DNA from: Pseudomonas phage NCVTCBPA170
Length of the DNA stretch: 64,000 nucleotides
Direction: 5' to 3' (one strand)
Sequence record: PV733668.1
In this document: positions 12,576 to 13,643 of the stretch, one piece after another
Layout of the letters: every line of letters starts with the position of its first letter
Numbering within the stretch: position 1 is the stretch's first letter
Position numbers and translations under genes: made by a program
The notes under the pieces: generated by a model
Database searches by the model: none
What the model saw: the letters and a program-made list of their open reading frames with translations, nothing else
Told to the model about the DNA's origin: nothing

Positions 12576-12878
12576 ATGAGAAACATGTTCGTTACGCCCC
12601 ATGCCAGGAAACGCTTTCGTGAGCGGTTCCGGCTCCAGTTCCACCCCTCGGTCTTCGAGGACGGTAGAGACATCTACGTCATCCGGAAGCTTTTCGCTGA
12701 AGCGAAATACTGTGATTTTGAGCTTCGTATGCGGATAGGAAACTATAACGCGCTCTGCGTAAAGCACGGCAGGGTCGTAAGGGTTTCCAAGGTTCGGAAT
12801 TTCGTATTCGTTCACGATGACTCGACGATCTACACAATCCTGAAGGAAGGGATGGTTCTGTCAAACGTGAGGTTTTAG
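12576..12878 (+). CDS. hypothetical protein, 100 aa
   Basis: AGGAGG RBS; N-terminal HARKRFRER motif resembles HAxERxxERGI of DUF4258; weak. Confidence 0.45.
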   Translation: MRNMFVTPHARKRFRERFRLQFHPSVFEDGRDIYVIRKLFAEAKYCDFELRMRIGNYNALCVKHGRVVRVSKVRNFVFVHDDSTIYTILKEGMVLSNVRF

Positions 12879-12950
12879 GGTAGGGGTCTTGGCGACCAGG
12901 TTGGACTCCAAATTCAACCCAGCTCAGTTCGAATCTGAGACTGCCCGCCA
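12878..12950 (+). tRNA. tRNA-like element, possibly tRNA-Trp(CCA) with an aberrant D-arm
   Basis: T-arm ctcag-TTCGAAT-ctgag; anticodon arm ttgga-CTCCAAA-ttcaa; encoded CCA. D-arm and acceptor pairing are non-canonical. Confidence 0.3.
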
Positions 12951-12958
12951 AAAATCTC

Positions 12959-12986
12959 TTGACTTTATCTGAAAATGTGGTAAAGT
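12959..12986 (+). promoter_or_regulatory. candidate promoter for the tRNA cluster
   Basis: TTGACT, 16 nt, TAAAGT; flanked by the inverted repeat AATCTCTT / AAGAGATT. Confidence 0.35.
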
Positions 12987-13143
12987 GGATTTAAGAGATT
13001 CAGATGTGGGACCGACGAAGCTGATGTGCAGAGGAGGTGATCCAGCATCTCCCGGACGGGTCCGGGTTACCAACCCGCTAATTTCATAGCCCGACAGCAA
13101 GGGTAGTTCCTGCGGGGCCAGGGTCCAAGTGACCCTCCTACAT

Positions 13144-13220
13144 TCCGTTCGGTCCCTCAAGGTGAGGGAGCTTGACTGTTAATCAAGACGTGCCTGGTTC
13201 GATTCCAGGGAGCGGAGCCA
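13144..13220 (+). tRNA. tRNA-Asn(GTT)
   Basis: cloverleaf: acceptor tccgttc/gagcgga; anticodon loop CTGTTAA; T-arm cctgg-TTCGATT-ccagg; CCA encoded; U1 as in E. coli tRNA-Asn. Confidence 0.7.
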
Positions 13221-13277
13221 AAAGAGTAACCTCCACGCATAAGGCCTGGCACTGCGCACCAGGAGGTTAGTTTCAAC

Positions 13278-13365
13278 GGAGGGGTGGCAGAGCGGTTTAA
13301 TGCACCGGACTGTAAATCCGGCGTCCGACCGGGCATCGCTGGTTCAAATCCAGCCCCCTCCACCA
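13278..13365 (+). tRNA. tRNA-Tyr(GTA), long variable arm
   Basis: acceptor ggagggg/cccctcc; D-arm GCAGAGCGG..; anticodon loop CTGTAAA; variable arm; T-arm ctggTTCAAATccag; CCA. Confidence 0.8.
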
Positions 13366-13368
13366 AAT

Positions 13369-13489
13369 GCTGTGTAAGTTGGACTGTTGCAGTGAAGCGA
13401 TAGGCTCCCCGGATCGTAAGCCGGTAACGTGGGGATAGAGGGCTCCCACCGCTGAGCAACAGGAGGTTCGATTCCTCAACACAGCCCCA
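13369..13489 (+). ncRNA. about 120-nt tRNA-like RNA (tRNA with an insertion, or a tRNA-derived element)
   Basis: perfect 7-bp acceptor closure gctgtgt/acacagc + discriminator + CCA; canonical T-arm ggagg-TTCGATT-cctca; the interior is 44 nt too long for a standard cloverleaf. Confidence 0.3.
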
Positions 13490-13566
13490 AAACTGCTCCA
13501 GGCAGTTCAGCTAGGCTAGGCTTGAGAGGTAGTAGCCCGTTTTTCCAAAACCTCTCACTTACAATC

Positions 13567-13643
13567 AGGCGTGTGGCGAAAAGGTTTAACGCACTGGACT
13601 TTGACTCCAGCATTCGTGGGTTCGAATCCCACCACGCTTGCCA
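13567..13643 (+). tRNA. tRNA-Gln(TTG)
   Basis: anticodon arm ctgga-CTTTGAC-tccag; T-arm gtggg-TTCGAAT-cccac; acceptor aggcgtg/cacgctt with one G-U pair; CCA. Confidence 0.6.

Follow-up and report, generated by a model that had tools for sequence, protein, structure and literature searches.

What genes, apart from ordinary transfer RNAs (tRNAs), does a phage tRNA cluster carry? We addressed this question in a 64,000-nucleotide (nt) stretch of Pseudomonas phage NCVTCBPA170 (PV733668.1), referred to here as the window, for which an initial annotation had proposed two tRNA-like elements that break the canonical cloverleaf: element 1 (12878..12950) and element 2 (13369..13489). Both held up on closer analysis, being 99–100% identical in ~40 Nankokuvirus genomes and showing compensatory changes in their homologues. 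The 1.1-kb region around them is 99.5–99.7% identical to ~40 Nankokuvirus phages of P. aeruginosa, including KPP10, PAK_P3, PAK_P5, and CHA_P1, and by this sequence likeness the window is a Nankokuvirus (i.e., a KPP10/PAK_P3-like P. aeruginosa phage). Both elements have homologues with 75–80% identity in other genera, and this likeness ends at the element borders. We read the locus as the late tRNA operon of Nankokuvirus, carrying two tRNA-derived genes beside three ordinary tRNAs, and put the probability of this explanation as a whole, including the readings of both elements set out below, at roughly 70%. Both elements fall in known categories—tRNA-like RNAs and non-canonical tRNAs—rather than new ones.

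Element 2 and the Late RNA sRNA2/ncRNA2 of PAK_P3

Has element 2 been seen as an RNA? Positions 86304–86430 of PAK_P3 are 100% identical to window 13366–13492, and element 2 is almost certainly the RNA described from that phage as sRNA2 and later as ncRNA2. The searchable text of Chevallereau et al. 2016 (PMC4933390) reports two abundant late small RNAs in PAK_P3, of which sRNA2 was placed between two phage tRNAs, was 12-fold higher late than early, ranked 24th among 86 late features, shared an 11-nt match with host T-psi-C loops, and was likened to bands C and D of phage T4. The original coordinates of sRNA2 (86344–86477) omit its first 37 nt and overrun its 3′ end, and the acceptor helix was hidden because those 37 nt were left out. 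According to the searchable text of Putzeys et al. 2024 (PMC10914365), ncRNA2 was refined to 86307–86426(+), has no transcription start site, and is predominant in the processed-RNA library, while a Northern blot revealed an abundant species of ~120 nt whose signal rose through infection. The published ends derive from these Northern data and from Oxford Nanopore Technologies (ONT)-cappable-seq (PMC10914365).

Since the PAK_P3 segment is 100% identical to ours, 86307–86426 corresponds to window 13369–13488, that is, from the first acceptor base (G1) to the second C of the CCA. The initial annotation had proposed small-RNA sequencing to map mature ends; the published PAK_P3 ends agree with the tRNA-like model of element 2 to the nucleotide. 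If the library was poly(A)-tailed, as we assume, the terminal A of element 2 would be indistinguishable from the tail. The 5′ end coincides with the first acceptor base, the expected cleavage site of RNase P, which presumably makes the cut, and the 3′ end appears to be trimmed to CC(A) by one or more processing enzymes.

In the searchable text of both papers (PMC4933390 and PMC10914365), the RNA is presented as an intergenic or 3′ untranslated region–derived noncoding RNA with a T-loop-like 11-mer. That text describes, for ncRNA2, no acceptor stem, CCA end, or RNase P-type 5′ end, and no kink-turn or junction domain or covariation with Pakpunavirus. Element 2 is therefore already known as an RNA. 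What appears not to have been described before is its tRNA-like architecture, together with the RNase P-type ends, the candidate kink-turn, and the covariation.

Structure and Covariation of Element 2

What does the full-length RNA look like? We derived its structure from seven distinct variants aligned to a covariance model, with position 1 of the element at window 13369; both elements and the other parts mapped here between 12878 and 13733 lie on the plus strand. The RNA, put at about 120 nt in the initial annotation, totals 121 nt; as stated there, 3 nt (AAU) separate it from tRNA-Tyr with its CCA, and the perfect 7-base-pair (bp) acceptor helix, discriminator, and CCA that it listed are likewise present. 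The acceptor helix P1 (GCUGUGU/ACACAGC) joins positions 1–7 to 111–117 (13369–13375/13479–13485), followed by the discriminator, C118 in this phage (13486), and the encoded CCA (119–121; 13487–13489). The T arm (95–109; 13463–13477) had been called perfect; its T loop UUCGAUU (13467–13473) is indeed canonical, but the stem consists of 4 Watson–Crick bp plus a G.A at the fifth pair (94/110; tRNA 49–65), which is U-A in EM-type phages. Between P1 and the inner domain runs a linker, AAGUUGGA (8–15; 13376–13383), that resembles a D loop (A14 G15 U16 U17 G18 G19 .. A21) with no D stem.

The inner domain begins with P2 (16–22/88–94; 13384–13390/13456–13462), which would form the canonical (C) helix of a candidate kink-turn. 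The bulged strand of this motif (13391..13395) comprises a 3-nt bulge, AGU (23–25), and then G26 A27, which lie opposite G86 A87 (13454–13455); P2b (28–31/82–85; 13396–13399/13450–13453) would be its noncanonical (NC) helix. Beyond P2b, a junction strand, AUAGGCUCC (32–40; 13400–13408), leads to two hairpins: P3 (41–44/53–56; 13409–13424), with an invariant 8-nt loop, AUCGUAAG, and P4 (61–66/76–81; 13429–13449), whose loop, AUAGAGGGC, reads AUAG(A/C)GGGC across variants. An alternative reading of the P3 loop is a GUAA (GNRA) tetraloop that is closed by C-G and carries an AU bulge.

Homologues of element 2, 119–121 nt long and 75–80% identical, occur in Pakpunavirus (PAK_P1-like) phages, where tRNA-His and tRNA-Thr flank them and 2 nt separate their first base from the CCA in front. 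Across the seven variants 95.4% of cells are paired, both sides have changed in 11 of 31 pairs, and compensatory pairs between Nankokuvirus and Pakpunavirus occur in all six helices, at least one in each. When the partners are slid by one to three columns, pairing falls to 26–58%. As judged from these comparisons, the tRNA half and the novel domain are both under purifying selection.

Does the long helix hold a kink-turn? Six of the seven variants carry the full signature (a C helix ending in C-G, a 3-nt bulge of AGU or GUU, tandem G.A/A.G, and an NC helix), which is the pattern of Kt-7, box C/D, and riboswitch kink-turns, and the flanking helices P2 and P2b covary. A kink-turn is thus the probable reading. 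RNAfold offers a different minimum free energy (MFE) structure, in which P2 is extended by AGUG/CGCU and followed by a small hairpin A; we rejected it and preferred the kink-turn register because the alternative pairs only in the window sequence, one of the seven. Also rejected was a helix between the direct repeat GGCUCCCC and GUGGGG, which is not kept in EM-type sequences (variants read by eye). Three points weigh against the structure as drawn: the kink-turn is recognized from its sequence pattern only; a natural variant, the Pakpunavirus record pPA-3099-2aT.2, breaks it with UA in place of GA on the 3′ strand; and element 2 is confined to two sister genera with seven distinct sequences, which limits statistical power. 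No L7Ae-type binding protein is known to us from Pseudomonas or from this phage, although no search aimed at one was made.

How widespread is element 2? Among the loci that we assembled, the covariance model found it only in Nankokuvirus and Pakpunavirus, and on Otagovirus-like, terminase large subunit (TerL)-related, and T4 loci the matches of covariance model R1 were ordinary tRNAs only. A core 17-mer retrieved Nankokuvirus and Pakpunavirus copies from IMG/VR and otherwise chance matches in coding DNA. A gapped loop pattern run against metagenome and GTDB genome collections gave three chance matches, which were rejected by model R1.

Some observations touch on where the RNA may have come from. 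The P3 hairpin, CCGG-AUCGUAAG-CCGG (13409–13424), is similar, apart from one additional loop nucleotide, to the anticodon arm of the neighboring tRNA-Tyr (CCGGA-CUGUAAA-UCCGG; 13304–13320), and P4 sits at the place of a class II variable arm. The inner domain of element 2 could, by this likeness, have descended from a duplicated tRNA-Tyr. In Otagovirus-like phages, we also found orphan T arms that stand just after a tRNA without a matching acceptor 5′ strand (L006 1747–1763, L008 1794–1810, and L037 6193–6209). Those of L006 and L008 follow tRNA-Tyr, and that of L037 (GGTGG TTCGATT CCACA) is identical to the T arm of Pakpunavirus element 2, its G.A included. These orphan T arms may be remnants of an element 2–like gene.

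What Class of RNA Is Element 2?

Element 2 has no D stem, and where a tRNA carries its anticodon arm it has P2, the candidate kink-turn, P2b, and a three-way junction. Because it has neither a D stem nor an anticodon arm at tRNA geometry, it cannot decode, and we consider it very likely to be a non-decoding tRNA-like architecture. ARAGORN did not call it in default, intron (-i), or transfer-messenger RNA (tmRNA) mode, and no Rfam family matches it. Of three options raised by the initial annotation, a tRNA-derived regulatory RNA is the best fit to this stable, processed, abundant RNA without a D stem or an anticodon arm, and a permuted or hybrid tRNA found no support.

The third option, a tRNA with an insertion, would mean a tRNA gene interrupted by an intron or insert and spliced to a normal tRNA. 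Its length would suit such a gene, as insert-bearing phage tRNAs of 118–130 nt occur in unrelated contigs; those tRNAs, however, keep a normal D arm and anticodon stem, whereas in element 2 no D or anticodon stem flanks an insert. With the negative ARAGORN intron search and a Northern blot whose abundant species, in the searchable text of PMC10914365, is the 120-nt form, this explanation is highly improbable. The insert-bearing genes are tandem phage tRNAs in IMG/VR contigs L020 (4606–4724, 4930–5057, and 5061–5178) and L060 (1343–1466 and 1659–1788), whose acceptor, D, and T arms are normal and whose anticodon-loop region contains an insert of ~45–50 nt; an ACAGCAA-like motif is common to the inserts. 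From their sequences, they look like tRNAs with small introns or inserts.

Could element 2 be a relative of another known RNA with a tRNA-like part? tmRNA, of roughly 350 nt, has a G3.U70 pair (the alanine identity pair), a tag-peptide open reading frame (ORF), and pseudoknots, and its tRNA-like domain consists of an acceptor helix, an unpaired GG D-loop analogue, a long helix where the anticodon arm would be, a T arm, and NCCA. The order of parts in element 2 is that of this domain, in 121 nt rather than ~350 nt. We rejected a tmRNA identity: G3.U70 is absent from element 2 (3-70 being U3-A70 or C3-G70, and U.G in one variant), as are a tag ORF and pseudoknots, and ARAGORN in tmRNA mode and Rfam were negative. 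In the bacterial Y RNA YrlA, the 5′ and 3′ ends form the Ro-binding stem and the tRNA-like module is internal. This identity was rejected as well, since the topology of element 2 is the reverse, with the ends forming the acceptor stem, and Rfam gave no match.

The likeness to the tmRNA domain bears on a related idea, namely that element 2 modulates translation by entering the ribosome or by binding SmpB or EF-Tu, in line with the ribosome-blocking idea of Chevallereau et al. (PMC4933390). The shared topology of acceptor, unpaired GG linker, long helix, and T arm would suit such a role, as would late expression and a T loop identical to those of host tRNAs. The missing tmRNA hallmarks speak against it, as does the 3′ end: the discriminator is C in Nankokuvirus and A in Pakpunavirus, and the CCA is not encoded in Pakpunavirus element 2 (which ends in ACUC or ACCU, next to tRNAs that end in CCA). 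Conserved aminoacylation is unlikely because both features differ between the genera, and with charging doubtful we regard a translational role as unlikely.

Element 1 as a Probable Compact tRNA-Trp

Is the other element also unable to decode? Element 1, of 73 nt, has a cloverleaf as its RNAfold MFE structure. The acceptor (GGGUAGG/ACUGCCC; 12878–12884/12940–12946) has six pairs and, in this phage, a G.A mismatch at 7-66; it is fully paired in relatives. The D arm (GGUC-UUGGC-GACC; 12885–12897), which the initial annotation regarded as defective, is instead miniature, with a 4-bp stem and a 5-nt loop (UUGGC; 3 nt in relatives). It abuts the acceptor with no nucleotides 8/9, whereas a canonical tRNA needs U8/N9 and a 7–11-nt D loop. 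A single A (A26; 12898) precedes the anticodon arm (GGUUGGA-CUCCAAA-UUCAACC; 12899–12919), whose loop (12906–12912) is canonical, with the anticodon at 12908–12910, and whose stem spans seven positions instead of the canonical 5 bp. The variable loop, CAG (12920–12922), has 3 nt rather than 4–5, and a T arm (CUCAG-UUCGAAU-CUGAG; 12923–12939), discriminator G73 (12947), and CCA (12948–12950) complete the molecule, so that the Trp anticodon CCA and the encoded CCA end reported earlier both stand. Element 1 would derive from an ordinary tRNA by deletion of the U8/N9 linker along with the greater part of the D loop, lengthening of the anticodon stem to seven, and reduction of the variable loop to three, with the anticodon loop, G73, D-loop GG, and T loop kept.

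Would a tRNA finder see it? Default ARAGORN returned exactly the canonical set of the initial annotation (Asn-GTT, Tyr-GTA, and Gln-TTG), and neither it nor Rfam at curated thresholds called element 1 or any other tRNA that might have replaced that set. Rfam scored Tyr and Gln above the gathering score and Asn at 26.9 bits, below the cut-off of 29. Only when relaxed to -ps80 or run in metazoan-mitochondrial mode did ARAGORN call element 1, as tRNA-Trp(cca) at exactly 12878–12950; the mitochondrial mode labels it a D-replacement-loop tRNA. Its best Rfam match was tRNA-Sec, at 17.8 bits against a cut-off of 47, and at gathering and permissive thresholds Rfam had no family for either element.

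Otagovirus-like phages whose hosts are P. syringae, P. fluorescens, P. gessardii, and P. poae carry homologues of element 1 with 78% identity, as do IMG/VR contigs, and all of these homologues are exactly 73 nt long. The matching records carry no annotation there, and none of the Nankokuvirus or Otagovirus-like records examined lists element 1 as a tRNA. Among five variants, 92% of cells are paired and both sides have changed in 5 of 23 pairs; the T stem shows five pair combinations in five variants, while the D arm, anticodon loop, and variable loop are invariant. The Otagovirus-like clusters, nearly complete in their tRNAs (18–19 of them called by ARAGORN), contain no other CCA-anticodon element by ARAGORN or record annotation.

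Is this architecture peculiar to these phages? A looser pattern search recovered it from unrelated IMG/VR contigs (L061, L064, L070, L075, L085, L088, and others), many of them within phage tRNA clusters. For 11 compact tRNA-Trp sequences we counted pairs with a position-based script, as MAFFT misaligned their 5′ halves. The acceptor is 97% paired and the D and T stems are 100% paired. The D stem occurs as GGUC/GACC, GGGC/GCCC, CCUC/GAGG, GUUC/GAGC, and GCGC/GCGC, and two to three pair types are seen at three of the four D-stem positions. The four inner pairs of the anticodon stem form in 11 of 11 sequences and the outermost in 10 of 11, with frequent mismatches at positions 2 and 3. The anticodon C34 C35 A36 is invariant, and G73, which the search pattern did not impose, is present in all 11. 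Because the same architecture, covariation, and G73 are found in unrelated contigs, we place the unannotated element 1, on comparative grounds, in a recurrent class of compact phage tRNA-Trp genes; default ARAGORN calls some of its members and misses others. The tRNA-Trp of mycobacteriophage L5 is canonical and was rejected as a relative.

The Pakpunavirus clusters have a tRNA-Trp of their own, 77 nt long (L005 259–335, which is EPA1, and L004 ~258–334). It is annotated in the EPA1 record and missed by default ARAGORN, and, as we read the sequence, mismatches prevail in the D stem and in the upper part of the anticodon stem. Default ARAGORN also misses the Ser, Tyr, Met, His, and Lys tRNAs of these two clusters.

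Is element 1 a working tRNA? The main identity determinants for TrpRS are the CCA anticodon (C34 C35 A36) and G73. Because both are kept, we infer that host TrpRS probably charges element 1, which would read UGG as a working tRNA-Trp; annotation pipelines have probably missed it. The idea that its odd D arm might let it read UGA, as in the Hirsh suppressor, found no support, and TGA is the commonest stop codon in the window.

The position of element 1 would also suit another role. The upstream ORF (12576–12878) ends in a TAG stop whose last base is the first G of element 1, and the promoter of the tRNA operon (12959–12986) lies 3′ of the element. Because it abuts the ORF stop and lies upstream of the promoter, element 1 could act here as a tRNA-like 3′-end structure that punctuates or stabilizes the upstream messenger RNA (mRNA), or it could be a pseudogene. 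The G7.A66 mismatch of this phage points the same way and, like the position, counts against a working tRNA-Trp; default tRNA finders, moreover, miss the element, and its 73 nt fall below the ~80-nt limit of the published ONT pipeline. Opposed to this are the anticodon loop, G73, and CCA, which are invariant while the stems covary, the recurrence of the same architecture within the tRNA clusters of other phages, and the absence of another Trp-anticodon tRNA from the Otagovirus-like clusters. We therefore regard a non-decoding element 1 as rather unlikely.

A compact tRNA core is known elsewhere. Element 1 has in common with tRNAPyl and mammalian mitochondrial (mt)-tRNASer(UCN) a 3-nt variable loop, an elongated anticodon stem, a 0–1-nt acceptor/D linker, and a 3–5-nt D loop. 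As in element 1, the Methanomethylophilus alvus (M. alvus)-type tRNAPyl has no linker nucleotide and a broken anticodon stem, and mt-tRNASer(UCN) keeps G18-G19 and the T-psi-C loop (PMC7609411). The anticodon, in contrast, is CCA in element 1 but CUA in tRNAPyl and UGA in mt-tRNASer(UCN), and the anticodon stem has seven positions rather than six. We treat the likeness as architectural only, an apparent convergence on core geometry rather than common descent. We assume that the bacterial host has no PylRS, at which no search was aimed.

Layout of the tRNA Operon

How are these genes arranged? By sequence, the transcription unit runs from a promoter through a ~160-nt leader, tRNA-Asn, tRNA-Tyr, element 2, and tRNA-Gln to a strong intrinsic terminator. 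The promoter is sigma-70-like (TTGACT-16-TAAAGT; 12959..12986) and equals "putative promoter_18" of PAK_P3. It is followed by tRNA-Asn(GTT) at 13144..13220, called by ARAGORN, and by the class II tRNA-Tyr(GTA) with encoded CCA at 13278..13365 and tRNA-Gln(TTG) at 13567..13643, both found by ARAGORN and Rfam. The terminator (13703..13733) has an 11-bp GC-rich stem and then a T run.

The leader contains a block (13012..13080) conserved in Pakpunavirus. Within it lies GGAGGUGAUCC (13033–13043), which we take to be an 11-nt perfect complement of the 3′ end of 16S ribosomal RNA. This is its single exact match in the window; it is not followed by a plausible start codon, and the predicted fold places it within a hairpin, GGAGGUG-AUCCAG-CAUCUCC. 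The ~60-nt block around it is kept in Pakpunavirus, there between tRNA-Met and tRNA-Cys.

Possible Roles of Element 2

What might a non-decoding RNA with tRNA ends do? Element 2 lies with tRNAs between one promoter and one terminator, has processed ends at tRNA positions, and is highly abundant late. It would be transcribed within the tRNA operon and keeps the "top half" of a tRNA only: the acceptor helix, the D-loop-like GG linker, and the T arm. This half would be recognized by RNase P, by the 3′-trimming and CCA-repair activities, and probably by T-loop modification enzymes, and correct ends and tRNA-like stability would follow. The kink-turn would bend the long arm, and the junction hairpins with their invariant loops could then dock back on the elbow or offer a binding surface. 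The tRNA half might thus engage a tRNA-recognizing factor while the kink-turn/junction module binds a second partner or folds onto the elbow. We tentatively propose that element 2 is a tRNA mimic acting late as a decoy or scaffold for such a factor. The decoy idea is circumstantial, and the discriminator and CCA differences between the genera described above count against it, in that the 3′ end may not be the same in both.

The phage also encodes, on the plus strand, an RNA ligase at 43795–45015 (PF09414, 83 bits; TIGR02306, 137 bits, below the cut-off of 151), and the host rtc RNA-repair operon has been reported to be induced ~80-fold on infection. Together these suggest that RNA or tRNA damage and repair are part of this infection, which lends the decoy idea a circumstantial setting but not direct evidence. 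The ligase combines PF09414 with a PHA02142 oligonucleotide/oligosaccharide-binding (OB) domain and is of the DRB0094 type. We rejected a polynucleotide kinase (PNK)-like repair partner: the "nucleotide kinase-like" PAK_P3 gp143 reads as an HslV-type peptidase by its N-terminal sequence.

Could the RNA simply be a decaying tRNA pseudogene, a functionless by-product that accumulates as it still attracts RNase P and stabilizing enzymes? Nankokuvirus has lost most of the tRNA cluster of its relatives (3 called tRNAs vs. 14–19), remnant-like orphan T arms occur in related phages, and two comparable T4 RNAs, RNA C and RNA D, have gone 50 years without an assigned function. A decaying gene, on the other hand, would hardly have a non-tRNA central domain with compensatory changes in all helices and invariant loops, nor a length fixed at 119–121 nt. 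Element 2 is nearly invariant in the ~40 Nankokuvirus genomes, was kept while neighboring tRNAs were lost, and is among the most abundant late RNAs. Decay is accordingly an improbable account.

Equally, we think it improbable that element 2 is a classical base-pairing small RNA acting on host or phage mRNAs. This was the original working hypothesis, and the searchable text of PMC4933390 reports 11-nt matches to phage gp67; according to the same text, the predicted host targets showed no differential expression. What was reported as an 11-nt host match is the T loop, and conservation tracks structure, with covarying paired regions, rather than a single-stranded seed.

Long tRNA-shaped RNAs in Other Phages

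Does a tRNA mimic of this kind have counterparts? T4 RNA C (species 1; 139 nt) and RNA D (species 2; 119 nt) are stable late RNAs inside the T4 tRNA cluster, and element 2 shows the features of this type: a place inside a phage tRNA cluster, a length within 119–139 nt, stability, late expression, and tRNA-like ends. By our reading of its sequence, T4 RNA C has, like element 2, a canonical T arm (CCGGG UUCGAAU CCCGG) and a GG-containing linker (AGGAAA) in place of the D arm; its acceptor-like closing helix (CGAUUCG/CGUUUCG) has two U.U mismatches, whereas that of element 2 is perfect. The internal domains differ, and we saw no kink-turn in T4 RNA C. Covariance model R1 gave no match on T4 rnaC or rnaD, and a single 9-mer, CGUAAGCCG, is common to element 2 and T4 RNA C, with an estimated chance of ~6%. 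RNA C and RNA D appear to be the closest functional analogues of element 2, with the same design principle and no detectable homology.

A second, unrelated tRNA-like RNA of 126 nt lies between tRNA-Lys and tRNA-Ser in the Otagovirus Pseudomonas phage M5.1 (L007 789–914). Its acceptor is a perfect 7-bp helix (GCUCUCA/UGAGAGC), its T arm reads ACAGG-UUCGAUU-CCUGU, and a second hairpin, UUCGAAA, lies in its interior; the homologues in COT4, UNO-G1W1, PE09, and PN09 are, like the RNA itself, unannotated in every record. With this unrelated RNA added to T4 RNA C and element 2, long tRNA-shaped non-tRNAs seem to recur in phage tRNA clusters. More speculatively, the three RNAs could form one class of "tRNA-scaffolded" non-decoding RNAs that hijack host tRNA biogenesis and stability through the acceptor/T-arm half, with an effector domain (in element 2 the kink-turn and three-way junction) that neutralizes a tRNA-directed host factor, for instance an anticodon nuclease or some other defense aimed at tRNAs, while the compact tRNA-Trp could be redesigned to escape it. 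We hold this wider scheme to be doubtful.

Neighboring Features

What surrounds the operon? Small ORFs, one of them DUF5681, lie on one side and terminase genes on the other. Upstream, window ~12309–12519 corresponds to PAK_P3 sRNA1/ncRNA1 (85248–85458), a processed RNA of ~210 nt that is 91-fold higher late than early; the region overlaps the 3′ end of ORF 12123–12371 and the next intergenic stretch and, by eye, forms hairpins that are not tRNA-like. Just 3′ of element 2, a hairpin at 13491–13507 bears a weak likeness to what we take to be the stem of the type I-F CRISPR (clustered regularly interspaced short palindromic repeats) repeat, with only ~8 nt in common. Downstream, the PAK_P3 counterpart of ORF 13755–14579, PAK_P30164, is labeled "terminase large subunit" in RefSeq. 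This ORF has a Walker-A-like motif (AGGGKS) and no Pfam match; the Terminase_6N and Terminase_6C domains sit in ORF 15158–16576, and a 156-amino acid ORF with no assigned function lies between the two.

Implications

What do the two elements mean for these phages? Our analysis gives a structural identity to sRNA2, one of the most abundant late RNAs of the therapeutic-phage model PAK_P3. Its mapped ends are those that tRNA processing would yield, which ties it to the 50-year puzzle of T4 RNA C and RNA D. The recurrence of compact tRNA-Trp in diverse phages indicates that phage tRNA inventories are under-counted. It is also relevant to tRNA engineering, as bacterial TrpRS and ribosomes probably accept this naturally compact tRNA. 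If the wider scheme were true, tRNA-scaffolded phage RNAs would represent an RNA-based anti-defense strategy.

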